From assembly GCA_000091205.1 (NCBI GenBank), contig AP006487.2: a stretch of DNA of 64,000 nucleotides; one strand, given 5' to 3'. Positions within the stretch are counted from its first letter, which is position 1; every line of letters begins with the position of its first letter. Shown here piece after piece: positions 1,789 through 45,862 of this stretch. The notes beneath the pieces are model-generated. The model did not search any database, was not told the origin of the DNA, and was given only the letters and a program-made list of their open reading frames with translations. A program made the translations under genes and the position numbers. The DNA is from Cyanidioschyzon merolae (Eukaryota).

Positions 1789-2760
1789 TTGCGTAGAACA
1801 GAGCCGTCCACGCAGATGAGTGTTTCCAAGGTCTGGCTACTGGTTCCGACCGGCCGACCAGGTCAGCTGTGGCAAAGTCGTGTTGCGGGAGAACCGCCAC
1901 CGCTCACGGACGCACACGTCCACGAGACGCTACGGAGCCTAGAGGCGCAGGGCTTTCGCCTACTCGTTCAAGTGCGTTTACCTGCACGCCTATGCAAAAC
2001 CACGTGCGAGCGAGATAATGAAGGCACTACTGACCGAATGTTTCTCATTTTTGTGGGAAAATCAGGGGAAAGCTTGCTGCGTGGCCAGTCCTTAACGACT
2101 GCGAACTTGGAGTGGCGTTGCGTATTCAGCACGATGGACGCCACCGATGAGCAAAAGGGAGAACTTGGACAGCAGAACTCTCGTCCGCATGGAAAGCCTG
2201 GCCTGCTCGCCAACTTTTGGAGCGCGCTTGAAGATCGTGCCGAGTCGGCTGCAGCTACGGCGCTTGGAGAGCAGTTGACCCTGGGCTCAGAGGAGCCTGG
2301 CGACGATGCCCACCAGCGGCAAACCACTCGACCACCACGTAGTTCAGTTCAAAGTAGCCTTGAGCTAGAGTGGACTCAGGAACCCATGGATGACTCTGCC
2401 GAGGATCTACTGACATCGGACTCAGAAGACGAGGACGCGGTTGTCAATGAAGCGCGACTGCGTCTCGAACGCTGTTCCCAGCAATGCGTGCGTTTCGGTG
2501 ACCCGATGCCGCTTTTACTCTCCGAGCGTCGGAATCGCCAGGCGTCGCCGCGGGAGCAGCGATACTGTAAGCAATGCGGAGGTATGCTCAAATTTGTATT
2601 GCAATTTTTCGTGCAAAAGTGTCTTTTTCTATGTGAGCGACTTGCATTTGCGAACGCTGGACTCGATTTCCCAAAAGAGGTATTCAGCACCGACATTGAG
2701 TCCGCCGACGTCTTCCACTGCGAGGCCGGATGCGGTGCCGCTGAGCTCGATCTGCAGTGA
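1789..2760 (+). CDS. hypothetical acidic protein, no domain recognised
   Basis: A 323-aa ORF that diverges about 100 bp from the rubredoxin gene. It has a DSEDEDA acidic stretch and codon bias like its neighbours. It may be spurious. Confidence 0.3.
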   Translation: MRRTEPSTQMSVSKVWLLVPTGRPGQLWQSRVAGEPPPLTDAHVHETLRSLEAQGFRLLVQVRLPARLCKTTCERDNEGTTDRMFLIFVGKSGESLLRGQSLTTANLEWRCVFSTMDATDEQKGELGQQNSRPHGKPGLLANFWSALEDRAESAAATALGEQLTLGSEEPGDDAHQRQTTRPPRSSVQSSLELEWTQEPMDDSAEDLLTSDSEDEDAVVNEARLRLERCSQQCVRFGDPMPLLLSERRNRQASPREQRYCKQCGGMLKFVLQFFVQKCLFLCERLAFANAGLDFPKEVFSTDIESADVFHCEAGCGAAELDLQ

Positions 2761-4789
2761 AGCTACTTTGTGGAATCCTTGGAAAATTAGTATTATCGAC
2801 TGTGTGGGATCCCGAGAATGAGGATCCCTCACTGCTGCTTGAAACGAGGTCATGCGGCGGCACGAAACCGCCAGTGGTCAAGAGCTTGGATAAGCGTTGC
2901 GCGCTGCGTAGACGCCTCCGCACGAGCCACGACGCTCCTAGCCGCACCAGAGCGATGACGAGGACGCCTTGCATCGGTAATGAATAGTTCTGCTGCAGTT
3001 ACATCTTGCCGTGTACAGAGACTCAGCGGTTACGTCACTTGCGCTGGAGAGCACTGCTGGCGCTCAGATACTCGCGTTTTAGTCTTAATTATCCCGCAGC
3101 GTTTTTTGCTAATCCCACGTCAACACGAGAGAGAACGAACTCGAACTCGCTAACTCGGACGAACACACGAATGTTTGCGTTTTCCGAATGTCATGAATAC
3201 TAGCCTTAGAGGGTTTTTGTGCGACTGCGTCCTTTTCTTCTCTCTCATCTCCGGCTCTCAGTACGTCGCCCTCACCTATCTCCCCAGTTCCCTTGCCAGC
3301 AGTCGAAGGATACTGGAGAGAGCATTCATGTCCCGATTTCGCAGCTTCCGGTTGCTGTCGACACGTTTCGTGCGCATACGATTGTTGCGATGAATTCCTC
3401 GCTTACCTTTTTCATCTTGTTTGCGTACGCTTTCGGTGCGCATTTCGCACTTGCATCAACTTGCTCTGGGAAGGTTCCCGTAAATGTCCAGGACATATCC
3501 TTTTTCACGTGCCGCCATGTGGGGCGCGAACACTCGCTTCGTGGCCGTTTAAGTGCTCTTGATTGGAACTGAAGTCTTGCGTGGATGGCGTCTGCCGTTT
3601 TCGGACTCGGCACAGTAGCCTGTGATCGCACGCCTCAGCGGGGCGATTCACGAGGCGAGTACGCTGTCCGCTGCATGCGCTGGCGCATCTTGTTCCATTC
3701 GGCAGAGGATTTGTGGTACGTAATGTTGTGTATGATGAAACAAGCAGCGGCGGGTAAATCCAGACCGGAGAACCAGTCGTGTGGTATCGATTTGCATGCG
3801 CTCCTTTTGTACAGCTCGGTGACGCACCCGCCAATGACTTCGATCACAGCCATGACACAAGCCCGAGTCGTTGACCGTTTTCTATGCAAACACAAGAGAC
3901 GCTTGCTTCTCGGCGCATGTCCCATGAAAGGCGTCATTCTGCTGCGGAATCCGCTTCCGTCCATGAACTAACACAAAGGAGGATTTTTCTTTCAAACGAA
4001 ATCTATTTTTTGAGGTGACGATTTCAGTTAAATTTTGTGATGCGCTTTTAACAAAGTAGTCGAAGGGCGACATCAAGTCACGTTTTCCATGTTCCACGCA
4101 GCGATTAGCATCCCTGCGCCCACGAGTTGCCTCGAAACAAAGAGATTGACAACATGATTCATGGATGATTTCAGCACGTTACTTGACCGGTAAAATCAAA
4201 ATTGGAGGCTTGCAAGTATAGAATGAATAACAATATTGCTTATTTTACAAACCTTGGCTTGACGGCAACGAGAATCGTCCTGATTCCGATGACGTTACGA
4301 ATTCCAGCGGCAGACTCGAATGAGCCATGCTGCAGTGGAGACTAGGAGTCCTCACTCTACTTGAGGATTTGAAATCTCTTATTGATGCGCTTCGAATGCC
4401 AAACCAGTACATGTAAAAAAGTTCGGAAAAAGTCGCAAGGCAGAAACAGAACGTTCCGCCCAGCACTCCGTGCTAGTCAGACACCGGTTTATCGAGCAAC
4501 TGTACATCCCGCGCCACGGCGAGGCGCGCGTTTCGCTGCACAGAGCGAAATCTGCGATGCGCGGCAGATCGCTGCGGCGGTTATACTCGCGCGCTAATAC
4601 TCGCACTCTTGTACTCGCCCAAGTACACTTCTGCAGTCATACTTGCGTCGTTACAGTTGTGCAGCGTCATTTGCTGCAAAACGGAGGCGATCCTTATTCG
4701 ACGGACTCTGTTGAAGCAACCGCTTGAGGTGTTATTTATTTACTGCAAAACGCGAACACTGTAAGGCTCCAATACTACGAAAGCCATAA

Positions 4790-8658: not shown

Positions 8659-9352
8659 CTATGTGTGCGGTGGCGGGCACCAGCTTTTGTCGCACGCGAG
8701 TTCCGTCACTGTTGACACAAGTCTTCGTTCCGCAAGAGACACTTCCGCTCTTTCGGTTCGTTCGCAGTCTTCTCGGCTACTTTTCTAAAGGCACAGGGCG
8801 AAATGCGCCCCGTCACCGAGCGCTGCTCAGCACTCGTCCAGAAAGTGGCACCACGAAAACGTCAAGTACAGAGATATCACCAAACGGTGTTGCGAGTAGC
8901 GTCCGCTGGATCCAGTGGAGGCGTTTTTAGTCTTTCAATTCAATTCCTTCGTCTGCGCTGCAGTGCGTAGCAGGAGATCGAAAAGACTAGCCAATGAACC
9001 GAACAGATCGTAGAGGGATTACCTGCAGGAATATACTCGTGAAGGAACAGTGCATGGAGGTCTGCATTCCTCCTTCAGGTCAGTTATGCAACAGGACTCA
9101 GATGGCTGAGGAACTCTGAAACAACCAAGAATACGCGCTCCGCGCCAAAAGCCGATATTCTCGAAGACTGGATGCGGTCAATGGTAGAAAACCACCCGTT
9201 GATCACCTGTTCTGGAAGGAAATAGCGACGATAGTAGCCACCATGGGCGACTCTGTTTCCCACCAGCTTGTTCGTGTGGTGCTGAAAACTCTAGGGTACA
9301 GTCGCTAAAGAGAGTCCGGGTCCACGCATGGCCATCTTCCACCGGCACCAAA

Positions 9353-10313
9353 ATGGCAGCGTTCCTGGAACTCAGCGATCAGTATGACGTCCACGGACGT
9401 CGGTTTGTTTTTTCCCAGTCGATGCGGCTTCCTTCGGACGAGGCGGTCGGTGCGTTTATGGGTATCCTCGGAGATGGCGTCTGTGCTATGTACGAACGAA
9501 CTTTTAGAGAACGAGCATGTCATCAACTGTTCGAGCTGCAGTGGATTCTTTTGGCGGCCTCAGTTTCGCTCATAGACAAGACACATACAAGAGCAGCAAC
9601 GAATTCGTCGAATCACTGAAGACGGTTCTCTGACGTCTTCTGACAACCCTCTGTTGGACAACGTGACATTTCACGATTCTTCTTGCGTTCGAGTCTCTGC
9701 AGATTCTGTTGGAATAGAGCCGCTTTTCATTCCTCCGTACGCGCCGTAGTTTAACGCCATCGAAGAAGTCTTTCTTATCATCGAACGTGGTGATCGCTCC
9801 ACTGGGCGAACCGCTGAAGCGTTCAGCACACCGGGACGCCCGGGTACGCCTCGTCGCTCTTCCGCAAGTCCACCTCTGTCCGGAGACGTCCTTACCTCAA
9901 GGCGTAAAAAAGTGCGTCCATTTAAAGAAATAAAAAATCTGACGGCTGAGCTGGGGTGTACACTTCAGAGGGTCGAGACGGAGATAAGCCAGCGGAGCGC
10001 TTCGGCAACAGATATGCACGGCGAGCTGACAGAGCACCGGGTAGCATAGAGGGCACGGGTTCGATCACTCCTTGCATGGCTGCGTTCCGTCAGAGGCGAT
10101 AAACGCATGGGGTTCGTGAACCGAGAATGCAACGTCGCCAACAATATGAGGCGATGTGTGGCGCTGAAGACGAGACCCGAGGAGATGAAGCGATCCAGCT
10201 TCCTGGGGTGTCCTCGAAGCCTCCAGGTATCCAAGGAGAGGATGAAACGCATGGCAGGGGGCCGGTCGAAAAAGGCTGTGGTGCGTCTACCAGTTGGTAT
10301 TCATTCACCCTAG
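9353..10313 (+). pseudogene. third, strongly decayed TnpB/Fanzor-like nuclease relic (copy C)
   Basis: The ORF at 9353 reads RRFVFSQS...AFMGILGDGVCAMYERTFRE. This parallels copy A, which reads RRTHFQSF...GFVMGIDPGSTRIS/AMVAMPLYDENGIRF. The ORF at 9384 has INCSSCSGFF, a CxxC(G) zinc-knuckle remnant. The ORF at 10107 has NRECNVANNMRR, comparable to DRDxNAAxNIlrr RuvC-III. The pieces are in different frames and widely spaced, so this is heavy decay or a mosaic. Confidence 0.3.
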
Positions 10314-11044
10314 GGTTCTAAAAGTTTTCGTTCTACCGAGTGGAGCCAGCCATGCCCTCTACAGAATGCTCTCGGGATTTGTATGCTCTGCCGCCCAGTC
10401 TCGAGAGCTTATACCGGCCTCTGGTAGTCATTCGCAGACCTGAATCCCTACCGACCTTCGTTTCCTGGCAGCGTCGATCATGTATCTTTGATGAACTTGT
10501 CAAAGGCTGCGGCAGGCCGTCAGAATGCCGTAGGATTCCACTCGAGCAAGGTCGAAGGCATTCGCTCGCACGCATGCTTGCGAAGAAGCTGAACAGAGCT
10601 CGCCTTATCCAGACCACGTATACGTTATATCGATCAATACACTACGCGTCTTCCGTGCATATTGGCCATGCATCATGAAGTGTGCGACCATGCCTCTGGA
10701 GATAAAGCGCACAGGTTTGGTGCTCCCGAAGCCTGCCCCAGCAGAGGGCGCCCCCGGCACAGGCGGAGCTTTCTTTGAGCGCTGGGAACACTTGCACGCA
10801 GTAACGCAGCAAGCCTAGTGTTAACCGTGGATTACATCGAATCTGATCACGCAGTCTGTTTGCACTCTGTATCAGCTTTGTTTCTAAGGGAAGCGACGCG
10901 GGCGTCAGCGGCTCGCTACCGCTACGCAAGCGGGTGCCGCTCGTCCGCTTGCATTTCAACGATCCAGCAGCGCTGTGCTTGCGTTTCCGGTGTGGGAGAA
11001 GCTGGTGCAATCCTCTCTAGCAGACTGAGTTCGTCGCCGTTTGG

Positions 11045-12355
11045 TTGCTCATGATAGACGCTGGAAGTGTCGATGGAGCCTCTGCGAACGATTCCGCTGA
11101 AGTCTACCCGCAACCGCACGCTGGTCTCAGCGATGCAGGTGTTGGACACAGTCGAGTACCCGGCCTGGAGCGTTGCACGTCGCCACCAGGGCAGACAGCA
11201 AAACCGATAAACTGCTTGGTTGTTGGTATGGCTGGGAGCGGTAAGTCGTCCCTGGTTTCGCGGTTGGTCTCGCACGCGAATGAAAAGCAGTGGGCCTGGA
11301 AAGCGATCAATCTCGACCCAGCTGTGCAGACGCTGTCGTTCCCAGCTGATCTGGATATCCGCGACACTGTGTCGTACTCGCGTGTCATGGAAGAGTACAG
11401 GCTCGGTCCGAATGGTGCAATTCTGACGGCGTTGAACCTTTTTGCAGCCCAGTTTGAGCGTGTACTCGATTTTATAGAGAGTGCTTGTGGTCCAAGTCGC
11501 GAAAATGCAACCGCGAATGAAAGCGACCAGGTGCTCGCGAGCTCGACGGCGCCACGTTTCATCTTCTTCGACACACCTGGGCAGATTGAAGCGTTTACCT
11601 GGTCTGCGTCAGGTATGATTGTGACGGAAACGCTGGCAGCGGTTGCCGAGTACCCCACTGTATTGCTGTATGTAGTGGACATTCCGCGCTGTGTTCGGAA
11701 CGTGCTCACATTTACGAGTAATATGCTCTACGCCTGTTCGATGTTGTACAGATCACGAATTCCTCTCCTTGTTTTGTGGAACAAGTGTGACTGTGTCTCC
11801 AGGGAGGAGGCAGATCGTTTAGGAACATGGATGCACGATTTTGAGGCTTTCGATGCAGCCCTCGAAGCCGGTAACGAAGCGAGCCGCACCCCTGGCGGCG
11901 GTGACTATGCGGTGAGTTTCTCACGTAGTCTCGCGCTAGCCCTGAACGAGTTCTATCAACAGGTCCCGTGCGTGTTTGTCAGCGCAACCACCGGCGAGGG
12001 TATGGATCGGCTCTTCGAATCGCTAGAGCACGCGCGAGTCGAGTACGAGCGCAGCGAATACCTCCAGCAAGTGCGTCAGCGGAAACGAGAACGTACAGCT
12101 GCTGAAGAACGCCGGCTGGAAAGGGAACGCCATCGTTTTCGGGCTGCGCATCGATCGACTGGAGATGGTGACAGCAACCAGGCGGGCGCCTCCGCCACGA
12201 CAGAGGCCACGAGCCGTGATCGTTTGCGCATGCGTCTGCAACGTGCTCAGCGGAACGGGTATCACGAGCACCAGGATGCTTCCCCTAATGAGGACGAGTC
12301 TGAAATGCGCCGACTTGCTGAGCGCTTTTCGCGAACGGGCCCGCGCTCCACCTGA
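11045..12355 (+). CDS. GPN1: GPN-loop GTPase 1 (XAB1/Npa3 family)
   Basis: P-loop CLVVGMAGSGKSS is present, as are NLDPAV and the signature YRLGPNGAILTALNLFA (the GPN loop). The C-terminal tail is long, charged and E/R-rich. Confidence 0.85.
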   Translation: MLMIDAGSVDGASANDSAEVYPQPHAGLSDAGVGHSRVPGLERCTSPPGQTAKPINCLVVGMAGSGKSSLVSRLVSHANEKQWAWKAINLDPAVQTLSFPADLDIRDTVSYSRVMEEYRLGPNGAILTALNLFAAQFERVLDFIESACGPSRENATANESDQVLASSTAPRFIFFDTPGQIEAFTWSASGMIVTETLAAVAEYPTVLLYVVDIPRCVRNVLTFTSNMLYACSMLYRSRIPLLVLWNKCDCVSREEADRLGTWMHDFEAFDAALEAGNEASRTPGGGDYAVSFSRSLALALNEFYQQVPCVFVSATTGEGMDRLFESLEHARVEYERSEYLQQVRQRKRERTAAEERRLERERHRFRAAHRSTGDGDSNQAGASATTEATSRDRLRMRLQRAQRNGYHEHQDASPNEDESEMRRLAERFSRTGPRST

Positions 12356-15190: not shown

Positions 15191-16522
15191 AGAGAGGCAG
15201 TTGTTACCGCGTGCGCGCGCGCGCGGATGCTTCCACAGCGTCGAAGATAGAGGATTTTTAAATTGACATTGGCCAGCGTTTCCAGAGACTGTGCCCCATT
15301 TTTTTCTTTTCTTTCTCTGTCAGCGCGCAGTGAGGCATCCAACAAACCCCCTACTTCCATATTCCATAACATATACTTCTTCTCGAGTATACAGGTCGTT
15401 TCATACATACAATCGTGATGGTAGTGCCTGCAGAATGAACCCGCCATAGCGCCGGTAGCGCCGGTGCAGATGCATCACCTACATACAGAACGGCTTTTCC
15501 ATACCACTGAGGCCGACGGTAATAGCGGCACAACGCGCTTCGCAGCAGGCACTCATGGTGAGCGCGACATGCACCAGGTCGGTGAAAAAACTACCATCAA
15601 CTCAGAGGAATCACGTACTGGGGATGCGTTGCCTAGGCGCGAAACTACAGGGACCGTTGCCTCTTTCTGGGTCTCTGGTGGCAATGGCGCATCCGTGGGA
15701 GACCTGATCAGACTCATGGGATTCGCGCCATAAAAAATGCATAGATCGAGGCAGATTCCCGCCACGGGGCTTGTCTATTTACCGCACGTATCATCGAAGA
15801 AGCACGTTGCCGACGGACTTATGATAGCGCATCACAAGTCGCGCAAGATTGCTTTTCGGGGCCGTATCGCTACGCTGTCGGGCGTATTCAGCAGATCCCA
15901 CCAGTTCTGGAAGCACGGTCAGTCGTTTGCTGTACCGTACTGCGCCCGGCGAAAAGACGCGCGCGGGTGTACCCGCTTGCCATGCACAACGCGAGATCGA
16001 GATATCTAACCAGAACCAGACGGATGTGCAAAAACAGCGGGACATCGGGCAAAAGTCTTCCACTGTTCCGCGAGAGCTCCCGTCTTTGTCAGCTTTTGTT
16101 TGCAAGTCTCTGGGGGTTCAGCGACCCTGCGAGACCCGAACCTTCTGAAGCCTCCACGTGAAGCCTGGTCCGATACTTGTTGCAATCACGTGCATCATCT
16201 CGACACTCACGATCAATAAGCTCAATAGTCTGCGTCGGGGTCACAGAACTCGTCGACTCTACATAAGAAAACGGAAACGCTGGCATGCAGTCCGTTTCAA
16301 CACTCCCGCGACCGATGCAGCCCCACAGGGCGGCTCGTCTGCAACGTCGCCCGCTCCACTGACGACGAGCTCGACGTCAGCCACTTGAGTTCAGGTGTTG
16401 GTACTTGGTGGCCTCTGCGGCCGTTTATGCCTCAACGGAAGCCAAAAGAAACTTGATGACACTGAGTACAGCTTCTTGAATAGGGGTTTTGCTGTTGACT
16501 GTTTGCCTCGCGTCCGAGCTCG

Positions 16523-22656: not shown

Positions 22657-24089
22657 ATGGATGCAAATGAGGAGCCGGTGGCGGTATCGCTCGAGTTGGT
22701 AGCGACTTCGGCAGAGATGTCGCTACGAGGGCGAGCGGCACTCCAGATGGTCCAAGCTCATCGTGATATGCTGGACCTCGAACCGGACGGGCGCCATATC
22801 CAAAGGATGGTTGAAACGAGATGCCTGCCTTCATTGCATCTTTCGCTACTTTATGTTCCTGAACAGGGCTCTCCAGAGAAAAACCTGCTTGCCTCCTTGT
22901 ATCCGTGCATCCAGGCCCCTGAGAAAAACCCATTCAATGCGGCACCGGTATGCCGGATTACGGCGCAGGCAACCATCGTAGATATTTGTGTTATGTACTG
23001 CATCGTGTCTGGAGTGAGCTACGGCTGGTCTCTGCGAGCAGGCATGGGACATGCGAGCATCATCTCGAAGAGCATTGGCGGAGCTCGCTCGACGATACGC
23101 ATCCGCTGGTAGAAAGTATAGAAGAGTCAATAGGGACGACAGAGAACGACAGAGTATCAAACCGCATGCAATTCGTGCAATCTAAGCCCAAGTCGAGCAG
23201 AAGGACTCATTTTCAATCGTTCAAGATAGATGATATGAAAGGATTTGTGATGGGTATCGATCCGGGGTCGACAAGAATATCGCGATGGTCGCCATGCCTC
23301 TGTATGATGAGAACGGCATCAGATTTCTGAAAGGCAAGCAGATGACACTGCTCATTTTGTGCAGGGCGTAATATCTTCGCGAGTCATAACGAACAGACGA
23401 AAGAAGCCATACCAACAAATGGAATGATAGCGTCAGAACTGCTTTTGTACGCGCTGAGGAATGTGATGAGCAGAGAAGCATGCTTCGTGCGTCTCAGATA
23501 GAGAGTACACAGATGCGTAACTGGCTCCCGCAGGCATCTTTAGCTGGAGTCCATGAGATGGCGCTGAAATCGCAAACGATTCCTGTTGTACAAGCGCAAG
23601 AAGCACGCATTCTCTAGGTCCTTCAGTGAGTTGGAACAGCGAGTGAAAGACAATGCGCGTCATTCGGTAATAGAGTATGAAGTTGGACATTCCAGCATGC
23701 GCACTGGCTGCACATCTATTCAATCGACAAGAGCGTTCACCAAGAGCAGAAACCTATGCGGGACGATTCCCACTGGAGGCGTTCAGGACAACGCGCATGC
23801 GCATCATGAGTACGACTGCACACTGAAACAGATCGAGAAGAAAAGCGTGGAACAGAGCGCGATACACAATATCATGCAAGGCGAGCTGATGAAATGCCAG
23901 ACACCGAGACATCCTCAGGTGAGAGGCGTACTATTGTGTGATGCCACCAGCGATCATCCATACGAGTACTTTCTGCATCGAGACTTGAATGCCTCAATCA
24001 ACAATCGGGAATGTGTGTGTTGCTGCCAGAGCGTCTATCAACTTTGTTTCCTGCATATTTTCCACGAAATTGATTCGTGCTCGGTGTAG
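22657..24089 (+). pseudogene. decayed TnpB/Fanzor-like RuvC nuclease gene (copy A), frameshifted
   Basis: Frame 0 at 23250-23290 reads KGFVMGIDPGSTRIS, the RuvC-I GIDxG with catalytic Asp. One base later, frame +2 continues AMVAMPLYDENGIRFLKGKQMTLL, comparable to TnpB ...AIVTDGVRFKHEQ... Further downstream fragments are SSRVITNRRKKPYQQ and MRNWLPQASLAGVHEMALKS. The ORF at 23586 reads HAFSRSFSELEQRV...IEYEVGHSS..TGCTS, comparable to WGEF..QLEYKAxWxG...TSQxC, then ...HRDLNASINN, comparable to DRDxNAAxNI RuvC-III. Order and spacing (RuvC-I to RuvC-III about 245 aa) fit TnpB/Fanzor. There are at least 2 frameshifts and several stops. Confidence 0.55.
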
Positions 24090-26079: not shown

Positions 26080-28620
26080 TTACTTGCGGTACGCCATGCG
26101 CCGCCAGAGCGCAGCTGCGTCGCTCGGAACATATGGTGCTCCAGGGCGTCGTCCGTGCCGCCCTAGTGTCGACGGGGCGTACATTGCCTGCCGAGCCGCC
26201 TGAATACCTTCGTGAATGGTCTGCACTAAACCCGAGGCCAACAGTATGATTGCAGCGTTCAACACAATGGTTTCGCGGAGCAATACCAGGTGCTCTGAAG
26301 ATAAACTGCTGGTCTCTGCTCCGACAGCGTTGTCGTCGATACCCGTATTCGTGAGTACCTCCTCGAGGAGTCGTGCATTCTCCACGGCATTGGCACCAAT
26401 CACAGCAGCTAAATCGCCCTTGCTGTACATCTGGTAGCGATGCGGTTGAAGAGGTATCTCGGCGACCTGGGCGATCTCCTCGCCGTCTGCATTGGGGCCG
26501 CGGTAGCAAACCTCGCGCACAGAATTCTGTCCCCAGGGTAGAAGACAGCCCAGATGCTGCTCTCCCGTTGGAGTGTCCTCGTTTGATGCCTCTGGCACCA
26601 GACAAGTGAAGAGCCAGGCTCTTACTGGACGGAAGAACGCGACTGCGTCCGTCAGCGCCTCCAGTTCTGCAGTTCCACTGGGAGCATGGAGACCCGGCGC
26701 AGTCACCAAACGATCAAGGTCGTAGGCATTCAAGAGCGGAGCCACTAAATCTCCCAAAAGCGGTGCTGGCGATGTTGCCACATCTTCCGCGGTAGCCGTT
26801 TCATTCAGTAGGAGTCGAATATCGCGCTTCGCGAGACCTATCGGTGATCGATAAAGCGCTATTCGCAATCGATCAAAAGTTGCACAGGACTCGGCTAGAG
26901 TCGGATAGGGGTTCAGCCCAACAGCAAGCAGGAAAGGGGCATAAGTCGTGCTCAACGTGCTCCGCCAGTCGTCGATGATACAGACGCGGGCACCTGCTGA
27001 TGTGGCAACGACGGCAGCGCCCAACATAATATGGGGAATCATGGCGTTGGAGAAGAGCAGCCCTACTATGGTGGATCTGGAAAGCGGCCCTGAAGGCTGT
27101 GGTGTCCGTGGATGAGCACTTATGTAGGCGGAAAGCTTTGGCAAGTGCGGAAGCAGCAACTGCGCGAGCGCTGCTCGTGCAGAGCCGTGCAAGACGCCAT
27201 CTGCAGCCATCGCGAGAATGCACAGCTTCCGGGCAACTGCGATGGACTCTGCTCGCGACAGGGCCGGAAGCAAGTGCTTCTGTTCATTGGACGATGCCGG
27301 GGCATACGCGCCTGACTTTCCTGCATACTGATATTGTTCGTCAGCGCTCAGCAGTGTAAACAGGCAGCGGGTATCTTCAATACTCAACGGCAACTGGCGA
27401 ATGATAGCCTCGTAGAGATCGGAGACGTCTGCGAACCAGCGGCGCGGCACGGGAGCCGTCTTGTTCGCTATTCGGTCGCTGTGCTGCCTCTGCAACAGTG
27501 CTTCCAGGTGGAAGCGCAGGCGAGCCCACACCATACCCAGAGGCGATGTCAGCGTTCGCGCAGCTCGCTGGTACGCCGGCTTCTTCGCTGGTGGACGCAA
27601 CGGCTGCGGAAACGCTCGCCATCGCTCTGCAAGCTCCTCTCGACCAAGGAAGACGCTGTCTAGTCGCTGTTGTAACTTCCAGAAAAGTCCAAGTATGATG
27701 AGGGCGATGGCACTGATCCAGAATGCCGGTACCGGGAACCGTCCGCCCGGACGGATTGTTTCCAACCCGGGGAGTCGCAGCGGCTCAACGGTAACCATAC
27801 GCCGCTCTCCTTGCCAGGCTCGTCCAGCATGCTCCATTCGTGCCTCATCTGCACGGTCGAGGAAACGTAAAGAGTATCGAACAAGATGACGGGATCTCAT
27901 CCACAGGTGTCTGCATGCGTAGGGCGTTACCCGACGTGCATCAGCAAGGATTTGCGTTGATGACTCGCGACCCCGTCCAAAGCGGTTGCGGGTGTATGCA
28001 TGTTGGCCAGGAAGACGCGTAGGTGTGTTGCTGATCCAGCGCACCAATGGAGCAGAAAACTGAAGTACCGGGAAACCCCATCGAGCCCGCAACGCCCGCG
28101 CCATCCCCAAGGAGCGACCTGTCTCCACATCCGAACGCTTCGGGAAACCATGACACCTATCCAGACTAGTAGACAGAAGCGTTGACGTACGCGCACCCGT
28201 CTCGCTTCTGGAGAGCATTGCACAGTGTTGGCACATGGAACAGGCGTTCGACCGGGGCCTCACGCCGGGCGGCATAACAGGATGCCTGCGGCTCGCAACG
28301 ATACCACTATCCGTTTCGGTGGCTGCTCCTGTATCCAAAAAGGCGCTCCAGGCGACAGGACGGTTCTTGGTCCATCGGTTTGGTATCAAGCTTCCAGTTG
28401 TCGGCCTCACGGTAGTGATTTCCTCTTGTTGACGCTTTGATACTTGCTGCTGCACCATGAAAGCTCGCTGCCGACAGCCACACAATGCAGAGGCCTCCTC
28501 AGCGCAGACAAACAATACCCTCCGACAGAAAGCAAGGTCGTTACTAGCACTACGAATGGTAAACAGTAGTAGTTGTTGTTGTTGCTCTCTTGACTGGGTT
28601 TGAAAAAGCTTTTGCGTCAC
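26080..28620 (-). CDS. membrane protein with C-terminal TrpD-like (glycosyltransferase family 3 fold) domain; catalytic motifs appear degenerate
   Basis: The C-terminal ~330 aa aligns in outline with anthranilate phosphoribosyltransferase. LLGDLVAPLLNAYDLDRLV is comparable to NLLGPLTNPA...LGV. KGDLAAVIGANAVENARLLEEVLTNTG is comparable to GGxAxENAxxLxxVLxG. LRETIVLNAAIILLASGLVQTIHEGIQAARQAM is comparable to RDAVLLNAAAALxVAGxAxSLxEGVxLAxEAI. The KHGNR and GTGGD motifs are not recognisable. The N-terminal half has a TM helix FPVPAFWISAIALIILGLFW. Confidence 0.4.
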   Translation of the reverse strand: MTQKLFQTQSREQQQQLLLFTIRSASNDLAFCRRVLFVCAEEASALCGCRQRAFMVQQQVSKRQQEEITTVRPTTGSLIPNRWTKNRPVAWSAFLDTGAATETDSGIVASRRHPVMPPGVRPRSNACSMCQHCAMLSRSETGARTSTLLSTSLDRCHGFPKRSDVETGRSLGMARALRARWGFPVLQFSAPLVRWISNTPTRLPGQHAYTRNRFGRGRESSTQILADARRVTPYACRHLWMRSRHLVRYSLRFLDRADEARMEHAGRAWQGERRMVTVEPLRLPGLETIRPGGRFPVPAFWISAIALIILGLFWKLQQRLDSVFLGREELAERWRAFPQPLRPPAKKPAYQRAARTLTSPLGMVWARLRFHLEALLQRQHSDRIANKTAPVPRRWFADVSDLYEAIIRQLPLSIEDTRCLFTLLSADEQYQYAGKSGAYAPASSNEQKHLLPALSRAESIAVARKLCILAMAADGVLHGSARAALAQLLLPHLPKLSAYISAHPRTPQPSGPLSRSTIVGLLFSNAMIPHIMLGAAVVATSAGARVCIIDDWRSTLSTTYAPFLLAVGLNPYPTLAESCATFDRLRIALYRSPIGLAKRDIRLLLNETATAEDVATSPAPLLGDLVAPLLNAYDLDRLVTAPGLHAPSGTAELEALTDAVAFFRPVRAWLFTCLVPEASNEDTPTGEQHLGCLLPWGQNSVREVCYRGPNADGEEIAQVAEIPLQPHRYQMYSKGDLAAVIGANAVENARLLEEVLTNTGIDDNAVGAETSSLSSEHLVLLRETIVLNAAIILLASGLVQTIHEGIQAARQAMYAPSTLGRHGRRPGAPYVPSDAAALWRRMAYRK

Positions 28621-28639: not shown

Positions 28640-29259
28640 TCTCGAAGCGACGTGCTCTAGAGAAAGCCCTGCAGGAGCCACACGACTCGAAAAAAGAGCA
28701 AGTCGTTACGATGAAGCGTTACCTGCGTAACGACTAGAAACAGCTGCTTCTGAGCGACACGACTCGAATAAAGGGCTAGTCGTTACGATGAAGCGTTACC
28801 TGCGTAACGACTAGAAACAGCTGCTTCTGAGCGACACGACTCGAATAAAGGGCTAGTCGTTACGATGAAGCGTTACCTGCGTAACGACTAGAAACAGCTG
28901 CTTCTGAGCGACACGACTCGAATAAAGAGCAAGTCGTTACGATGAAGCGTTACCTGCGTAACGACTAGAAACAGCTGCTTCTGAGCGACACGACTCGAAT
29001 AAAGGGCTAGTCGTTACGATGAAGCGTTACCTGTGTAACGACTAGAAACAGCTGCTTCTGAGCGACACGACTCGAATAAAGGGCTAGTCGTTACGATGAA
29101 GCGTTACCTGTGTAACGACTAGAAACAGCTGCTTCTGAGCGACACGACTCGAATAAAGGGCTAGTCGTTACGATGAAGCGTTACCTGCGTAACGACTAGA
29201 AACAGCTGCTTCTGAGCGACACGACTCGAATAAAGGGCTAGTCGTTACGAAGAATCGCC
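28640..29259. repeat. 77-bp tandem repeat array, about 7.5 copies, each unit containing a perfect 12-bp-stem palindrome
   Basis: Units start at 28681, 28758, 28835, 28912, 28989, 29066, 29143 and 29220, a period of exactly 77 bp. The unit reads cacgactcgaataaagggCTAGTCGTTACGatgaagcgttacctgCGTAACGACTAGaaacagctgcttctgagcga. Units 1 and 4 share gagcaag in place of ggctag. Units 5 and 6 share the variant ctgTgtaacg. This indicates higher-order structure. The array lies between the divergent starts of the 26080-28620(-) and ALG13(+) genes. Confidence 0.95.
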
Positions 29260-29457
29260 TCCCAAAAGGAGCTTCCCCGGGAACGCTTTACCGTGTAAGG
29301 CTTCGAACGGCTGAGAACGAGCCCAGGCGATACGCGTTACCGCCACCACTTGCATGTGTGCTCCGCGTGGCATCTCCAGTCGATGCTTCTGCACTGCTGT
29401 TCCAAAGTCGTTACACATGACGGTTTTTTCTGGGGGTACTTGTTGCCTTCCTAACAT

Positions 29458-29955
29458 ATGGGTAAACGGGTGTTCGTAACAGTGGGTACAACGCGCTTCT
29501 CGGGACTCGTTCAGGCGCTAGAGAACGAGCAGGTTCTCCGGTCGTTGCGCAGGGCTTGGGACTGCGACACACTGGTGGTCCAGCACGGATCAGGTCCAGC
29601 ACCAGCGAGAGCTTGCATCGAGCGTCATGGTATGACCCTGGAAAGTTTTCCGTACTCGGATTCATTACGGGATGAACAGGAGAGAGCGGACCTCATCATT
29701 TCGCACGCTGGTGCGGGCTCGATCCTCGAAGCACTCGAACATGCTAAACCGTTGGTTGTCGTCGTCAACGAAAGTTTAATGGATAACCACCAATGGGAAC
29801 TTGCCCGTGCACTTGCAGAACGAAAGGCGCTCGTCGCTACCACGTGCGCTGAGCTAGGGCAGGCGTTGGAGCAGGCTCGTCGTCACCGGCAGCAGAGACC
29901 GTTGCCACCGGCTTGTCGTGGGGTGCTCACGCGAGTTCTCTTCGAAGAGAGCTGA
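29458..29955 (+). CDS. ALG13: UDP-GlcNAc transferase subunit ALG13 (GT28 C-terminal domain)
   Basis: The N-terminus MGKRVFVTVGTTRF is the ALG13 signature VFVTVGTT. It also has ISHAGAGSILEAL, and KPLVVVVNESLMDNHQWELARAL, which is comparable to ALG13 LMNNHQxELA. The size of 165 aa is typical. Confidence 0.85.
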   Translation: MGKRVFVTVGTTRFSGLVQALENEQVLRSLRRAWDCDTLVVQHGSGPAPARACIERHGMTLESFPYSDSLRDEQERADLIISHAGAGSILEALEHAKPLVVVVNESLMDNHQWELARALAERKALVATTCAELGQALEQARRHRQQRPLPPACRGVLTRVLFEES

Positions 29956-31785
29956 GAGAGCATCAGGCGTTTATGCACCTACGGGAATGAATCGGGCCTG
30001 GAGGCATGCGTTCAACTGGTACACGGAATGGTGACCGAACGCCGAAACACCGACACTAGTACTTTTTGGAGGGAATCGCTTAAAGAAAACCTGGCGACTG
30101 GTAGTAGTTTCATTGTAAAACGATATGGAAGCTGCTCGCCTGTGTCGATACTTGACTCGTGCTAGAAAGATGCATGCTATCGATGAAATCGCATGGGCTT
30201 TCATGCCAAACTAGTGTGCACTTCTCTTTCTCCAGAGCGTACAGTATTGATTCTACAACGCTGGTACTCAACCTCATGGTATCGTTGAAACGGTACGGAT
30301 TCACGTCACCATTCACGCGTCCTCGTGCTCGGAAAGCATCGACCTCTTATCGGTTTGTTGGTAGGCACGTTGCCTTGGTCGTCGCCCAGCAGATGCGAGA
30401 ACCTTCTCCAGTTCGCATTCGTGGCATCTCCCTATCGCACACTTTTTCGAATGCTAAAAGGGCTTGGTTGTTCGTCAGTGCGAATGAATTGATCACTGGT
30501 GTGCCTCAACTCGAAAGTCTACATCGTTCACAGAGGCTGCGTTCGAATCGACTCGGAAACGGCAAAGAACAGCGCGATCCAATCTGTGTTTCATTGGTCT
30601 AGAGGATCAAAGCCAGCACCAACATGGAAAGGGAATGCTTCGATAGATTCAAACCACTTACAACAACGCAACGTTCATGATCTTTGGTGGCATTTAGCGA
30701 GCACTGCTGTTTCGCCATGCGATCGGAAACGACAGCGTCGATGACTGCCTTTATCGTCGGAGTCTAACGATATGTAATCCATCCTGAGGGTGAGCGTGTC
30801 ACGGTGCAATTGTGACAGAGACACTTGAAGGACGGGCCAGGGAGAAAGCAGGGTCCCTGAGCTATTTAACAGGTCTACAAAAAGCAGGCGCACAGACCCG
30901 AACTCCTGTGCAGCGTCGCAAAACCGACCTAGACGAGAACCGGGTTCTCCTTATTCAAACAAGTCTTGGAGCAGGAAACACTTCCTCGCTCCATAGCCTG
31001 AATATCTGCAGCAAACCGAGCTGTGGAAACTGGATTCGTGAGATACTCGACTGACACTTAACCCATAGAGCAGAGGAGAGGGCTCTCGGGGAGAGCCCGC
31101 ATCCACCGCAGAGTCCACGTGTCCCCCTTTCCCGACGACTGAATTATAGTGCGTTTCAGTACTTCCGACCTCGAATTTATGGTTCGCTGCGTTTCGAACA
31201 GGTGATGCTGAGCAGCACCACAAGAACAGGCATCTCGAGATCGCTCTACGGTGTCTAGACTGCAGTCAACGCAAACCTACCAGATCGGAAACAAAGAAAC
31301 CCAATTTCGGGAGAGCAGCACCGGGTCAACGATACCAGCCTCCGTATACGATAACATTACCGCTATCGTTCTGTCTGGCTAGTGCTAGCGAGTAGCGAAT
31401 GCACGTAGGCATGCATACTAGGGGTACTGCACGTCATGGAGTTGCCTGCAGCGCTTCCGCATACCCTCAGCGACTGCGCGTTCGTGCCTGTGCATGCCGA
31501 CATTGGATGCATTCGCAGTTGGATCCAAGTTTAACAAGACTGCATCTCGGTGGATACAGACCAGAGCGACGACTCGGCCGCAGACGAGTCACCGCTGCTG
31601 CCCAAGGCATCTGCTAGACGCTCAGGTGCTCTCACGGGTATCCCCGTGTACTCCAGACAAGTCTAGATCGCGTTCGATACACTAGCAGCCTGCTCCCCGT
31701 ACATCTGCTGCAAAGTGGCAACGACAAGAGGCGCAAGCGTCGACACCATCGCTCTTCCATCGAGCCGAATGTGTTCCTGTCCGAC

Positions 31786-34581
31786 TCAGTCACCCACGAG
31801 ATCCTTAATCCAGGCGTCCCAGCAGCCCGGTGGTGCCGCTGCCGTTGTTGTTGTTGTTGTTGTAGTCGTTGTCGTTGTCGTGGATCCCGGAAATGCCGAG
31901 GGCGCTACCGACCCTGCATCCAGGGCAGGCATCGAGTGGTGGCATTGTGAATCGCCTCCATGCCGTTTCTCGTGTGCTCCGTCGCTGGGCTCGGGACCAT
32001 TGAGCAGCGGCGATACACTCGATGGTGTCGAGTTCTCTGTCTGCAGAGACGGTGTGCCGGTGCATGTGCCGGTGCCGGTCTCGCTGGGGCCTCCTCCAAA
32101 CTCCGGTCCTTCGCTAGATGATGCAGCGCGGCTAGCGCACGCGTTCTCAGCAACCGCTGCTGGTACGACTCCAGTCCCAAGGATGCTTCCTGGCGTGATT
32201 GTGGCCGCAGCCGAAGCCGCAGCAGCTGCGTGGGGCGAAAGCGGCGATATGCGCGCATAGCTCCATGGGCCCCAGTCTGCTTGAGGCTGCTCCAAGAACG
32301 TTCCTCTCATTGGGGCCAGGTAAAACGAGTGCCCGAACGGGTCTAGGTGCTGATCAGATTCATCATTGCTGGGAGTACCAAGAACAGAGCAACCAGCTGC
32401 ACCGGTAGGCGCGACACACAGCGAGCTGCTGAATCCTCCAGGGTGCTGCTCGCAGACCTCTCCGCCTGGAATCTCCAGCGGCGGGAGCAGCCTCTGGCGA
32501 GCGCGTACACCCCGCAAGGCATCTTGCGTTGCTATCGCTCGAGACGGTGACCTTGTCGCTGCGAACATGAGCGGTGTCGGTGTCGGTATCGGTGTCGGCG
32601 GTACTGCTGTAGCGCACTGCTCCATTGGGGTAGAGGGCGCTCGGCTCAAAGCTCGTGTCGTTTGTGGTGCGCATGTCGATGCTACCGACAACGAAGTCGA
32701 TGCTGATGTTGACGACGACGACGACGACGACGATGGCGGCGGCGGCGGCGGTACATGCAAGGCATCCGTTGTCCTCGTTGCCGACAGGAAGCGTAGCAGC
32801 TCTGCAACGACCTCGTTGTGGCCATGCTGCGCAGCCAGGTGAACCGCAGTCTGTCCGTTCATGTTCGCTGCGTGCGCATTGACGGCGGGCAGTACACCAG
32901 CGCCCCGAATCCAAGCTGCAACCTGCAGCAAAAGGCGCACGCTTTCCGTCTTACCGTACTTGGCTGCGATCATAAGCGGCGTGTTCCCATCCTGTGCATC
33001 GGGCATGTCAAGCACATCGGCGGCATCCCAGAGCGGTACGCCCTGTGCCACCGGTGGTAAACCCAAGCACGCGCGCACGTCTGTGACCGTGATGAGTTCG
33101 CGCAGCACTTCGACATGGCCATAGCGTGCAGCGAAAGTCGCCGCCGTCCACCCTCGAGTGGAAGTTCTGCGCCTAGGATCGACACCGTCCCACAACGAGA
33201 GCAAATGGCGTACACATTTCGCGTGCCCGTGCTGCGCTGCGAGCATGAGCGCGGTGGCGCCCTCACCACATGGTGCATCGAGCACTGCCTGAAGCCACCG
33301 CTTTGCTGTGATAGTGACTGTCCCATTGGAGTCTGTGCCTGTCGTAAGGAGTGCAGATACCCTATGTTTCGCGAATTCGACCAGGAGCGCAACCACAGCC
33401 TCTTGACCGTGCTTCGCCGCGACGTGAATCGGCGTCATCCGCTTCCAATCAGCGGCAACGAGGTCCGCTTCGATTCGGACGAGCTCTTCGCCACCGTTCT
33501 TCAGCGCCGATTCGAGAATGGTCTGCACAACCTGAATATGGCCAAAGCGGCATGCGTAGTGCAGCGGAGTTGAGTTCTTCTTCCGAGACGGCGACACTGG
33601 GCCTTGAATGGCGGTCAGGGACGAGTAATTCGTGGTCGCCGAAGTTGGCGTGCTGATCGTGGACAACGGTGACGCCAGAGGGCATGTGCCTGCGCCCGCC
33701 GTTGCCAGCGGGCTTGGTTGCACTGCGCACACCAACCCTGGCGCCAGCGCTTGCGCAGCGGCAGGCGCGCACTTCACATACTGGAGCCCAGCGGAGACGC
33801 ACGCAGTGGTGCCGCTTTCGCTGCCGGTGTGCTCGCCTCGGAACGTGAACGCTGGGTCAGTTCGCTCATCGATGGAGCATAGAGGCGGCGTTATCTCGGC
33901 GGGCGCAGTTGCTCCACAGCGACTCTGTCTGAGCCCGGCGATATGCCCCGCGAACGTCTGCTCGTTCCGTGTACTGACGGCAGCGGCGCTTGCAAACGCG
34001 GGCGCATTTGGGTTCGGTGCTCCCGTTGCCTTCGCCGACGCTCCCTGGATGGCTGCATTCGCGTACGGAGTATGAACGTCCGCAGGGATTCCCGATACCG
34101 TTGCCGACGCCGGCGGTAGGCAGTTCGTCTCGAAAGCGCGGTTTCGGAGTGAACTTGCTTGAAACGCCTCTGCGACCCGAGAGGCACGCAGGCCGCCGAC
34201 CCGAGCACATCCAGCCGAACGCTCAGCGCCCGCTCCCGGCAATCTACGAGCCACGCTGGGCAAGGGCTTGCGTTCTGCTTGGGACCTATGTATGGCATCT
34301 TTGTGAAATCTCTGCTCCTCGTTTGAAGCTAGCGATTGCTCTGACCCGAGAGCATTCCGGACCGAGAAGTGACCATTGATATAGCTGCCAGTGCTGCTGG
34401 GTATACGCTCCGTGCTTTGCGTTCCCATCCGAGGCTCGCCCGATGGTCGCCGTTCCAGACGCTCTGACGATACGGGCTTTGCGCCCAGCACACCCGGAGT
34501 TCCAGCTCCGTGCTCCATTGTGCAATCCAATGTTCCCAGATGCAATCTATATGCTAGCAACGAAGAAGTAGTAGGCTTCAA
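31786..34581 (-). CDS. ankyrin-repeat protein with poly-Thr/poly-Ser/poly-Asp low-complexity tracts
   Basis: There are multiple 33-aa ANK repeats: TPLHYACRFGHIQVVQTIL, TPIHVAAKHGQEAVVALLV, TALMLAAQHGHAKCVRHLL, TPLMIAAKYGKTESVRLLL and TAVHLAAQHGHNEVVAELL. TTTTTTTTTTTTT and SSSSSSSSS tracts are encoded by the (GTT)n/(GAC)n microsatellites at about 31844-31888 and 32711-32751. Confidence 0.8.
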   Translation of the reverse strand: MKPTTSSLLAYRLHLGTLDCTMEHGAGTPGVLGAKPVSSERLERRPSGEPRMGTQSTERIPSSTGSYINGHFSVRNALGSEQSLASNEEQRFHKDAIHRSQAERKPLPSVARRLPGAGAERSAGCARVGGLRASRVAEAFQASSLRNRAFETNCLPPASATVSGIPADVHTPYANAAIQGASAKATGAPNPNAPAFASAAAVSTRNEQTFAGHIAGLRQSRCGATAPAEITPPLCSIDERTDPAFTFRGEHTGSESGTTACVSAGLQYVKCAPAAAQALAPGLVCAVQPSPLATAGAGTCPLASPLSTISTPTSATTNYSSLTAIQGPVSPSRKKNSTPLHYACRFGHIQVVQTILESALKNGGEELVRIEADLVAADWKRMTPIHVAAKHGQEAVVALLVEFAKHRVSALLTTGTDSNGTVTITAKRWLQAVLDAPCGEGATALMLAAQHGHAKCVRHLLSLWDGVDPRRRTSTRGWTAATFAARYGHVEVLRELITVTDVRACLGLPPVAQGVPLWDAADVLDMPDAQDGNTPLMIAAKYGKTESVRLLLQVAAWIRGAGVLPAVNAHAANMNGQTAVHLAAQHGHNEVVAELLRFLSATRTTDALHVPPPPPPSSSSSSSSTSASTSLSVASTCAPQTTRALSRAPSTPMEQCATAVPPTPIPTPTPLMFAATRSPSRAIATQDALRGVRARQRLLPPLEIPGGEVCEQHPGGFSSSLCVAPTGAAGCSVLGTPSNDESDQHLDPFGHSFYLAPMRGTFLEQPQADWGPWSYARISPLSPHAAAAASAAATITPGSILGTGVVPAAVAENACASRAASSSEGPEFGGGPSETGTGTCTGTPSLQTENSTPSSVSPLLNGPEPSDGAHEKRHGGDSQCHHSMPALDAGSVAPSAFPGSTTTTTTTTTTTTTAAAPPGCWDAWIKDLVGD

Positions 34582-36297
34582 AGAAGCGATGTCAACCGTC
34601 TCTTACCAGTAAGAGTCGGACAAAGCACTCAGCACAAAACGAAGCAGAACGAAACGGTGGCACTTGCGCTGCAGCGTGCCAGAGTGCGTGTCCAGCTGTC
34701 AGACACCGTCGTCACTTACGCGTCCGCTCTGAAAGCTGGACACGAACTTGCCCAAGGGCCTTGGCGAGAACGCGTCTTCGTTCCAAAAGCCTACTTTCGT
34801 ATGCCCAGTTTCCGAGGCTCCTTCACTATAAGAGAGCAAAGTCACAACCAAAGTCGTTGATTTGTTGCAACTTTCCCGCAACGTACCAAACTCGCGACTC
34901 TGCGTCTTGGTTGCGCTTTCACCAACTCGATTCCAGTAGCTGGAGGCTAGTGTCCACAAAAAGCACAAGTCCGACGTGAAACTCGTTCTACGCAGGTAGA
35001 GATGCTCCCAGAGGTCCGCACCGTCGTCGAGTCACCCCGAGGGCGTTGTCGGGTTTCGCGAACGAAGGAATATGTCGCAGTAGCAACGAGTTCCTTTCGA
35101 ATCCGAAACCTACGCCTCGTCAGTGTGTTTGGCCCGTCGATATCAAGTATGCGTTTCCCCGTATATGATATGACGTAACGGCACAATTGTCTGTTACTCG
35201 AAGAGCGAGCGACGCACGGACCGATGCGCGGGAAAAACCGACGGAACGGATGCGTGCACCGCCGTGACGCAGCGTCGATTTCTCCTTCGACGACACGCAT
35301 TCGATTTTGTGACACTTTAATGTAACGCTCGCGGGAGCGCGCGCGGCCACCCCGCGGGGATTTCGATTACATAGAGGTTATAGAGTTTCATGTCAATTGT
35401 GTTCCACTGCCAGGTGCAAGTACGCAACTGGTGTTTCGCGGTTCATAGAAGATGTATTCGGAGTGCGTTCAGTTCAAGAAATAAATACGCTAGAGGCAAT
35501 GGTTTCGACATGGGGTTCGTGGATCCCAGAGGCCCCGTATTGCAGGTTTCGACAAAAAAAGTGAAAAAATTCCTCTTCTTACGGAGCGTCGAGCAAAGAA
35601 GAGCGATTGACGAAGAAGCAGAAGGGGCGAACTGGGCGAGAAGAGGTATTTTCCGGACGGTGCGAAAATGAGACTCATGTCATACATAGGACGCTAGTCT
35701 TACGAATACTTGCATCGGTGAGTTCAACCAGAGGCAATGAACGCAATGAGTTCGTGAACCGGGAATCTCACACCGTCATTAAAATCAGAAAATGTGCGGT
35801 GCTGAACATGAGATTCGAGGAGCTGACGCGATCGAAGTAACTTGGGCAGCCTCTGGTACTCGACGTGTCCAGAAATATTCTGAAACCGATAAAAGTCGGC
35901 CGGTCAACGAAGGCGGGGAGGCGTATGCGCGTGCGTATACATACATAGCCTCCGTGGTCGTAGAACGTCTATTGGTTTCACGAAACATCGTATAAATGGA
36001 GCAGGTGCACTTGGCTAACTCTCGCGTCTACCCTAAAGATTTAGGCTGTTTCCAATGTCATCGACACCAGGCTTTGTGGAGGTTTTCTGAGACTGCTCCC
36101 TTTTTCTTGGACGTTGATACAGTTTTTTATACGCTGCTCCGTCCTTTCATCCAGTTTCCCTCCTGATAGTCGAAGGCTGTCAACAGCTGCGTTCGAGTTC
36201 GGACGTGAAGTTTCGGGCACTTATCTATCTATGCCGTTCATGCAGAGGCCGAAGTCGTCATCTACATTTCGCTCGCCATTTTGATCTTCTTTGTATG

Positions 36298-36324
36298 CAG
36301 CAGCAGCAGCAGCAGCAGCAGCAG
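36298..36324. repeat. (CAG)9 microsatellite
   Basis: Direct read: cagcagcagcagcagcagcagcagcag. It sits in an ORF-poor block. Confidence 0.9.
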
Positions 36325-45558: not shown

Positions 45559-45760
45559 CCGGCGTCTTTCATGCTGCAGAGAAGAGATAGAGGAAACGGA
45601 GCTAATCATACAAAACCCCGCAACAGGCTGGTGATGACGACAAAGTATACTGACCCAAACTTGAGCATGATCATCCGAATGAGAGCACCCGTCCCTTTCT
45701 AGTCTAACATGGGCGTCACGTGATGCACGCCGTATAAACGCCGGGAACTGGACCAGAGCG

Positions 45761-45862
45761 TCACCATCACCATCACTATCATCATCACGATCATTATCAT
45801 CATCACCATCACCGTCACTATCAGCATTGTCATCACCATCATCACTATCATTATCACCATCC
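45761..45862. repeat. imperfect (CATCAC/CATTAT)n hexamer-like low-complexity tract
   Basis: It reads tcaccatcaccatcactatcatcatcacgatcattatcatcatcaccatcaccgtcactatcagcattgtcatcaccatcatcactatcattatcaccatcc. On the minus strand it encodes a poly-Asp/Gly run inside a doubtful 210-aa ORF (45433..46065). It lies immediately 3' of Fanzor-like copy B. Confidence 0.8.

Follow-up and report, generated by a model that had tools for sequence, protein, structure and literature searches.

A probable hybrid DNA transposon, now in decay, that joins a Tc1/mariner-type transposase pseudogene to the end of a Fanzor1 gene

The closest described relatives of the repeat analysed here are Fanzor1 (TnpB-like) elements. 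CMe-1A, a Cyanidioschyzon merolae repeat of ~3 kb, was assigned to Fanzor1 with its class given as unknown (Bao & Jurka 2013, Mob DNA 4:12, PMC3627910); the CMe-1 Fanzor repeats showed no transposase, no terminal inverted repeats (TIRs) and no target-site duplication (TSD), and were left unclassified (Bao & Jurka 2013, PMC3627910). According to the same survey, a mariner transposase and Fanzor1 lie on one strand in PUl-1 and PUl-2 of Pythium ultimum and in PGv-1 of Phaeocystis globosa virus, a group in which chimeric elements with one part shared and another differing were also described, and a Fanzor element is listed in white spot syndrome virus (PMC3627910). For the genome of C. merolae, Nozaki et al. 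(2007, PMC1955436) further reported eight elements related to transposases and an interspersed repeat of 3.2 kb, present in 253 copies, whose open reading frame (ORF) is WSV486-like, and CMe-1A and this 3.2-kb repeat are probably one family. Here we describe a locus at 8928-10335 (+ strand) of a 64,000-nucleotide stretch of DNA (the window), within which a first-pass annotation had read positions 9353-10313 as a degenerate Fanzor/TnpB remnant. With a probability of roughly 0.8, we consider 8928-10335 to be a decayed copy of a non-autonomous hybrid DNA transposon in which a Tc1/mariner-type transposase is joined to a Fanzor1 end. This locus, here called R3-type, is a new family-level member of a group of transposons known from C. 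merolae.

The whole R3-type element is non-coding, measures ~1.39 kb and comprises a 5' end, a transposase pseudogene, a Fanzor1 C-terminal remnant and a 3' end. Judged from its translation, 9085-9800 is a frameshifted pseudogene of a Tc1/mariner/IS630-type transposase and not of a Fanzor gene. Its DDE_3 catalytic core (9403-9800, +) was recognised with Pfam model PF13358, which matched a single raw + frame at 9651-9788 with 31.2 bits (gathering score 28.6) and the stitched frames with 40.9 bits (E 2.4e-10; profile positions 39-131 of 146), and by blastp of the stitched reading to residues 107-279 of P0003, an intact 329-residue DDE_3 transposase from a metagenome (E 4e-13). The stitched reading follows at each point the frame that matches homologues (9085-9222 in frame 1, 9219-9305 in frame 0, 9403-9630 in frame 1 and 9645-10313 in frame 0). 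Motifs typical of Tc1/mariner/IS630 transposases, FFPVDAASF…YGYPRR, LLDNVTFHD and PLFIPPYAP*FNAIEEVF, place the first catalytic D in FFPVDAASF (9403-9504), the second in LLDNVTFHD (9645-9683) and the E in NAIEEVF (9750-9773). Preceding them is a helix-turn-helix-like (HTH-like) region at 9085-9305 (+), split over two frames by a shift near 9220, which reads '…RWLRNSETTKNTRSAPKADILEDWMRSMVENHPLIT' and 'EIATIVATMGDSVSHQLVRVVLKTLGYSR', or more fully SVSHQLVRVVLKTLGYSR; its pattern fits an HTH, is conserved in P0001 and P0002 and can be aligned to P0003 beginning at residue 107, and no Pfam HTH model matched the stitched reading. In-frame stops after 9305, after 9504 and at 9747 (TAG) break the transposase reading, as do frame changes near 9220, 9400 and 9635. 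Like P0003 and other IS630/Tc1-mariner transposases, the locus has a putative HTH region, a DDE core with LLDNVTFH and PLFIPPYAPxxNxIEEVF, and a PF13358 score above threshold, whereas it differs from them in being a pseudogene, which lacks the C-terminal ~40 residues, is cut ~17 residues past the catalytic E and runs into Fanzor sequence.

From 9834 to 10313 (+), the element reads as a real Fanzor1 remnant, limited to the C-terminal part of the protein. Taking the CMe-1 Fanzor1 protein (734 residues) and the CMe-1A consensus (3169 bp) from the supplement of Bao & Jurka 2013 (PMC3627910) as references, we found by tblastn that 9834-10295 corresponds to CMe-1 residues 572-728 (157 residues) with 41% identity (E 1.7e-25; z = 40.6 against shuffled sequences), and by blastn that 9947-10297 corresponds to CMe-1A 2738-3095 with 69% identity (E 1e-48). 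The homology extends over the last 157 codons and the stop of CMe-1, which in the remnant is TAG at 10311-10313. The RuvC-III motif of the remnant, VNRECNVANNMRR (CMe-1 counterpart NRDFNAAINIRR), contains the peptide NRECNVANNMRR, which lies inside 10107-10202 and had been called RuvC-III-like by the first-pass annotation, a call that the CMe-1 alignment bears out. A complete Fanzor is expected to follow D-X(125,275)-[TS][TS]-X-X-[C4 zinc finger]-X(5,50)-RD (Bao & Jurka 2013, PMC3627910). In the remnant, the catalytic D has changed to E, so that RD reads RE (NRECN), [TS][TS] is deleted, with an alignment gap in its place, an in-frame TAG stands at 10047 and ~160 codons are left, i.e., the C-terminal ~21% of the protein; the complete RuvC-I/RuvC-II/RuvC-III motif of Fanzor1/TnpB is not present at the R3 locus. 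CMe-1 residues 1-571 gave no tblastn alignment anywhere upstream of 9834 in the element, and the R3 tail gave no match to Pfam PF07282. The breakpoint between transposase and Fanzor sequence lies between 9783 and 9834. Compared with CMe-1A, the R3-type element lacks the N-terminal ~570 Fanzor codons (RuvC-I and RuvC-II) and has a DDE transposase gene instead, and its identity falls short of the ~80% that repeats within C. merolae were reported to share with their consensus, while neither CMe-1A nor the R3-type shows TIRs or a recognisable TSD. As a separate observation, a 31-nucleotide block (GAGCTGGGGTGTACACTTCAGAGGGTCGAGA, 9945-9975) is identical to CMe-1A 2738-2768 in DNA that is otherwise only ~69% identical, and an exact or degenerate match to it occurs in 9 metagenome stretches.

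The two parts were found joined in the same way elsewhere. The whole R3 unit is present on metagenome contig L001, which represents one locus with L017, at 71% and 68% identity, with an extra deletion of 163 nucleotides and unrelated flanks; L022 3304-4673 matches window 8928-10311 at 69% identity and L023 559-1905 matches window 8961-10332 at 67% identity, both with different flanks; and L024 holds a partial R3-type copy with the shared junction. In total, the 1.39-kb unit and its junction recur at at least four independent loci. Window fragment 9750-10046, which spans the junction, was used as query in an exhaustive search and returned five clusters of short metagenome ORFs with an identical junction (P0124, P0127, P0128, P0131 and P0132); L022, L023 and L024 are contigs of such ORFs. 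Among them, P0127 is a continuous ORF of 190 residues that extends from the second catalytic D to the RuvC-III motif. Because the junction and the outer ends recur at independent loci with 67-71% identity and unrelated flanks, the locus is one hybrid unit and not two neighbours. Within the window itself, self-comparison showed that 10069-10310 recurs at 35709-35945 and 51828-51585 (~67% identity, E 1e-27 to 1e-28). A repeat of ~260 nucleotides had also been considered as a candidate long mariner TIR; it was rejected, the repeat being the end of the Fanzor coding region.

In its arrangement the R3-type resembles PUl-1, PUl-2 and PGv-1, as in all of them a DDE_3 transposase precedes Fanzor1 sequence in the same orientation, and the D2-E region of the R3 transposase aligns with the mariner transposase of Pythium PUl-1, though with weak similarity (31% over 55-83 residues). 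The genes of PUl-1, PUl-2 and PGv-1, however, are separate and complete, and these elements have TIRs of 24-33 bp and TA duplications, whereas in the R3-type the last quarter of Fanzor is fused to a truncated transposase, and TIRs and a TA duplication were not found.

Five R3-type copies begin at one shared position with TAGTCYTTCAAMTCA, and the 5' terminal region (8928-9084, +) has the terminus TAGTCTTTCAATTCAA; at the other side, likeness to other copies stops within a 3' terminal non-coding end at 10314-10335 (+). Several other copies have a CGTGAAA-N9-TTTCACG hairpin at the matching 3'-end position. A short hairpin was likewise seen 20-30 nucleotides past the Fanzor stop at window 51560-51590 (-), in L024 (~590-615) and in CMe-1A (3118-3145), its sequence being lineage-specific (CGTGAAA-N9-TTTCACG here versus GCCGCCA-N13-TGGCGGC in C. 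merolae CMe-1A), and it could be a conserved 3'-end structure. As a check for a guide RNA (omega RNA) encoded at the 3' end, six copies were folded together with RNAalifold; the result, -20.9 kcal/mol with the covariation term at +1.28, showed no convincing conserved fold, and there was no Rfam match.

Broken by three or more in-frame stops and by three or more frameshifts, the R3 copy makes no protein and has no present function, and every window copy that we examined is non-coding. A second dead R3 copy lies a few kb to the left of the window (L014 567-1854 and L018 14201-14606) and is 97-98% identical to 9045-10331. It carries identical stops and frameshifts and so looks like a recent duplication of an already dead copy, either segmental or through gene conversion. 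In contig L009, both R3 copies seem to have been merged into a chimera during assembly, with a switch near 9045.

What these data show directly is the identity of both domains, where the junction lies and that the unit recurs at independent loci; internal deletion offers what is, on analysis, the most economical origin. The last ~480 nucleotides of the R3-type derive from a CMe-1-type Fanzor1 element, in which the first ~570 Fanzor codons are replaced by a Tc1/mariner/IS630-type DDE transposase gene (putative HTH; D, D and E motifs). In the parent, a full Fanzor1 gene may have stood behind a transposase gene in the same orientation, an arrangement documented for PUl-1, PUl-2 and PGv-1, before the interior was lost by deletion, and the resulting unit may have spread by mobilisation in trans and then decayed neutrally. 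The retained Fanzor 3' end would fit a cis requirement for the right end, where TnpB/Fanzor encode guide RNA. A second family in the window, the B-type, has the R3-type architecture and is probably of the same origin. The presence of a DDE_3 gene in an element with a CMe-1-like 3' end and first ~30 nucleotides resembling CMe-1A, in two diverged lineages, suggests, short of proof, that the CMe-1 Fanzor repeats should be grouped with those Fanzor1 elements of oomycetes and algal viruses that are associated with mariner. For repeat annotation, the finding explains the content of the ORF-poor gaps and reassigns half of a supposed Fanzor remnant to a mariner-type transposase.

Several observations count against this origin. 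A parent with an intact transposase and a full-length Fanzor was not found, and a near-full-length Fanzor1 pseudogene on metagenome contig L016 has no transposase match within ~2 kb upstream. TIRs and TA target-site duplication are expected for Tc1/mariner mobilisation; TIRs were not found here, no inverted repeat pairs the ends 8928 and 10335, and among five copies the termini are not mutual inverted copies, the flanking dinucleotides vary and no TA duplication is seen, a test limited by decay. The first ~30 nucleotides of the R3-type (TAGTCYTTCAAMTCA) are similar to CMe-1A consensus 791-822, and this resemblance of the 5' end is by itself not significant in shuffling tests. The B-type tail is weakly CMe-1-like (hhalign P 0.0018; z = 2.1). 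Furthermore, the junction is in frame in both R3 and P0127, and the tail of the five-copy consensus is an intact 131-codon ORF with a ratio of non-synonymous to synonymous substitution rates (dN/dS) of 0.41 versus CMe-1.

These last features would fit a reading in which the R3-type and B-type are relics of an in-frame fusion gene, composed of a Tc1/mariner transposase and a Fanzor1 zinc-ribbon/C-terminal domain, which was once the transposase-encoding partner of CMe-1. We regard this as a minority possibility, with roughly an eighth of the weight. In its favour, R3 9636-10313 is a single frame with only two stops, P0127 is continuous across the junction, the B-type lineage retains the architecture at 26% identity, and the 3' ~480 nucleotides and, loosely, the first ~30 nucleotides of the element resemble CMe-1A. 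If true, the fusion would be the missing transposase-encoding partner that mobilised the TIR-less, unclassified CMe-1 Fanzor repeats of Cyanidiales, and would physically link a DDE transposase to an RNA-guided TnpB module. However, when first the stitched pseudogene and then the R3/B alignment were run against 5.8 billion proteins in a word-indexed search, no intact copy emerged, only decayed ORF fragments and one ordinary transposase, and the exhaustive search with the junction fragment likewise yielded short ORF fragments only. In the five-copy consensus, the transposase part, unlike the tail, remains interrupted by stops and frameshifts; the functional Fanzor lineage contributes its own branch to the dN/dS estimate; and the tail, without RuvC-I and RuvC-II, could not be a nuclease. 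In addition, two frameshifts are common to all four window copies of the B-type, so that its master copy was probably already non-coding.

Much less probable is that the locus arose by chance from two neighbours, a 3'-truncated mariner-like element and an independently inserted 5'-truncated CMe-1 copy. Nested and adjacent insertions are indeed common in these gaps, as illustrated by tail-to-tail pairs at three loci, but chance would have to place the junction within one ~50-nucleotide interval and reproduce the same outer ends at each of the at least four loci, and again place the identical junction in the five further diverged ORF clusters.

Least probable of all is that 9353-10313 is a single degenerate Fanzor/TnpB collinear with copy A (RuvC-I, CxxC zinc finger, RuvC-III), since, although the tail is truly Fanzor-like and RRFVF, standing before the catalytic aspartate on an RNase-H-fold beta strand, is superficially RuvC-I-like, 9403-9800 matches DDE_3 and an intact transposase, CMe-1 aligns from 9834 only, the proposed N-terminal motifs lie outside the matching frame and score no better than shuffled sequences, and a ~1.4-kb unit is too short for ~570 N-terminal Fanzor1 residues. 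The first-pass annotation was thus right about 9834-10313 and mistaken about 9353-9800. The peptides on which it drew are all encoded here, RRFVFSQS at 9398-9421, AFMGILGDGVCAMYERTF at 9452-9505 and INCSSCSGFF at 9522-9551. The frame matching the transposase over 9403-9630 has position mod 3 = 1, though, whereas RRFVFSQS and AFMGILGDGVCAMYERTF are in frame 2. The parallel drawn between RRFVFSQS and RuvC-I of copy A reached z = 2.5 (equalled in 16/500 shuffles) and z = 0.5 against CMe-1, and INCSSCSGFF, taken as a CxxCG, is in frame 0, out of the transposase frame, with z ~0 against shuffles. Since RRFVFPVDETCF is the reading of the family consensus, RRFVF alone out of RRFVFSQS is probably part of the ancestral frame, where it immediately precedes the first catalytic aspartate.

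The R3-type locus is accompanied by other transposon debris. It had been proposed that the ORF-poor blocks are a graveyard of one transposon family, with all copies on the + strand and located in gaps between genes. The location in gaps was confirmed, and most ORF-poor gaps do hold related debris, but at least three kinds of element are present, namely CMe-1-like Fanzor with its deletion derivatives, the R3-type hybrid and the B-type hybrid. The + orientation holds for the four copies originally named, but not for relatives at 3132-4309, 36011-37348, 49644-50899 and 51556-52284 (-). The fourth of the named copies, at 30812-31054, found no support as a Fanzor remnant: tblastn with CMe-1 gave nothing at E <= 10, a Fanzor-tail hidden Markov model and Pfam in six frames gave nothing, blastn against the window and the fetched loci gave nothing, and shuffling gave z <= 0.2. 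The ORF-poor gap that holds it (29300-31790) has no likeness to the rest of the window, to the fetched loci or to Pfam.

Copy A (22817-24020, +) is a larger decayed CMe-1-like Fanzor1 remnant containing the RuvC-I motif GIDPG; it aligns with CMe-1 residues 329-682 (tblastn, 26% identity, E 6e-17), and its tail has z = 23 against shuffles. Two CMe-1-like internal-deletion derivatives were also identified: r35 (35379-35990, +) joins CMe-1A 786-969 to 2841-3088, and r51 (51556-52284, -) consists of CMe-1A 84-188, 826-965 and 2855-3088. All deletion derivatives retain the final ~250 nucleotides of the Fanzor gene and the 3' end. A further CMe-1-like copy, at L016 2094-4366, is the near-full-length Fanzor1 pseudogene mentioned above, covering residues 1-733 with 64-81% amino acid identity to the C. 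merolae consensus; it is split into several ORFs and comes from a metagenome shared with window-like contigs. Fragments at 15335-15519, 37505-37696 and 52284-52182 resemble the first ~300 nucleotides of CMe-1A (67-79% identity) and are TE-N2_CMe-like, TE-N2_CMe being a separate C. merolae repeat that forms the first 635 bp of the CMe-1A consensus (Bao & Jurka, PMC3627910).

The B-type family is ~1.3-1.4 kb long, with four window copies of ~58-60% identity. Copy B (44323-45717, +; tblastn with the stitched B-type consensus, E 4e-54) consists of a DDE_3 pseudogene followed by a diverged TnpB zinc-ribbon/RuvC-III tail. The other copies, at 49644-50899 (-), 36011-37348 (-, tail-to-tail with r35) and 3132-4309 (-), were recovered by self-comparison and by tblastn with the B-type consensus. 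On that consensus, PF13358 scored 33.3 bits and, ~120 residues on, the TnpB zinc ribbon PF07282 scored 26.5 bits (E 7e-6; gathering 26.3). Pfam scans of copies A, B and C in their raw frames were empty; copy B revealed its domains only once the family consensus was scanned. When stitched, the B-type and the R3-type align collinearly. Sequence searches of the PDB with the tail consensus, the stitched copy A and the B-type tail returned noise only (L26, ONECUT) or nothing. CMe-1/R3-type and B-type copies lie tail-to-tail, with their 3' ends facing and 30-80 nucleotides apart or overlapping, at the three loci noted above (window 35379-37348; L017 1881-3819; L014/L018, just left of the window start), and the junction positions vary among them; this pairing could reflect an insertion preference or recombination.

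The window as a whole has a G+C content of ~57%, and its genes are long, intron-free ORFs on alternating strands with ORF-poor gaps of 1-4 kb between them; no tRNA genes and no Rfam matches were found in it. Next to the right of 9353-10313 is a GPN-loop GTPase 1 gene (11051-12352), whose product is 100% identical to P0004, a protein known only from JGI, ENA and Logan metagenomes, with its closest named relative, at 52% identity, in the red alga Cyanidium caldarium; the gene's locus is present at ~99% identity in ten metagenome contigs. Taken with the transposon content, this makes a Cyanidiophyceae red alga related to C. merolae the most likely host; a trypanosomatid and an oomycete were considered as well and rejected on the alternating gene strands and the Cyanidium homologue. 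Two tandem repeats were also observed. One, at 28675-29254, is an array of a 77-nucleotide unit (7.5 copies, 97% matches) with an inverted repeat within the unit (CTAGTCGTTACG…CGTAACGACTAG), and adjoins an 846-residue ORF at 26080-28620 (-). The other, at 45761-45861, is an imperfect 18-nucleotide repeat (TCATCATCACCATCACTA, 5.8 copies) that lies immediately past the B-type copy at 44323-45717 and translates to His/Ile/Thr-rich runs in every frame.

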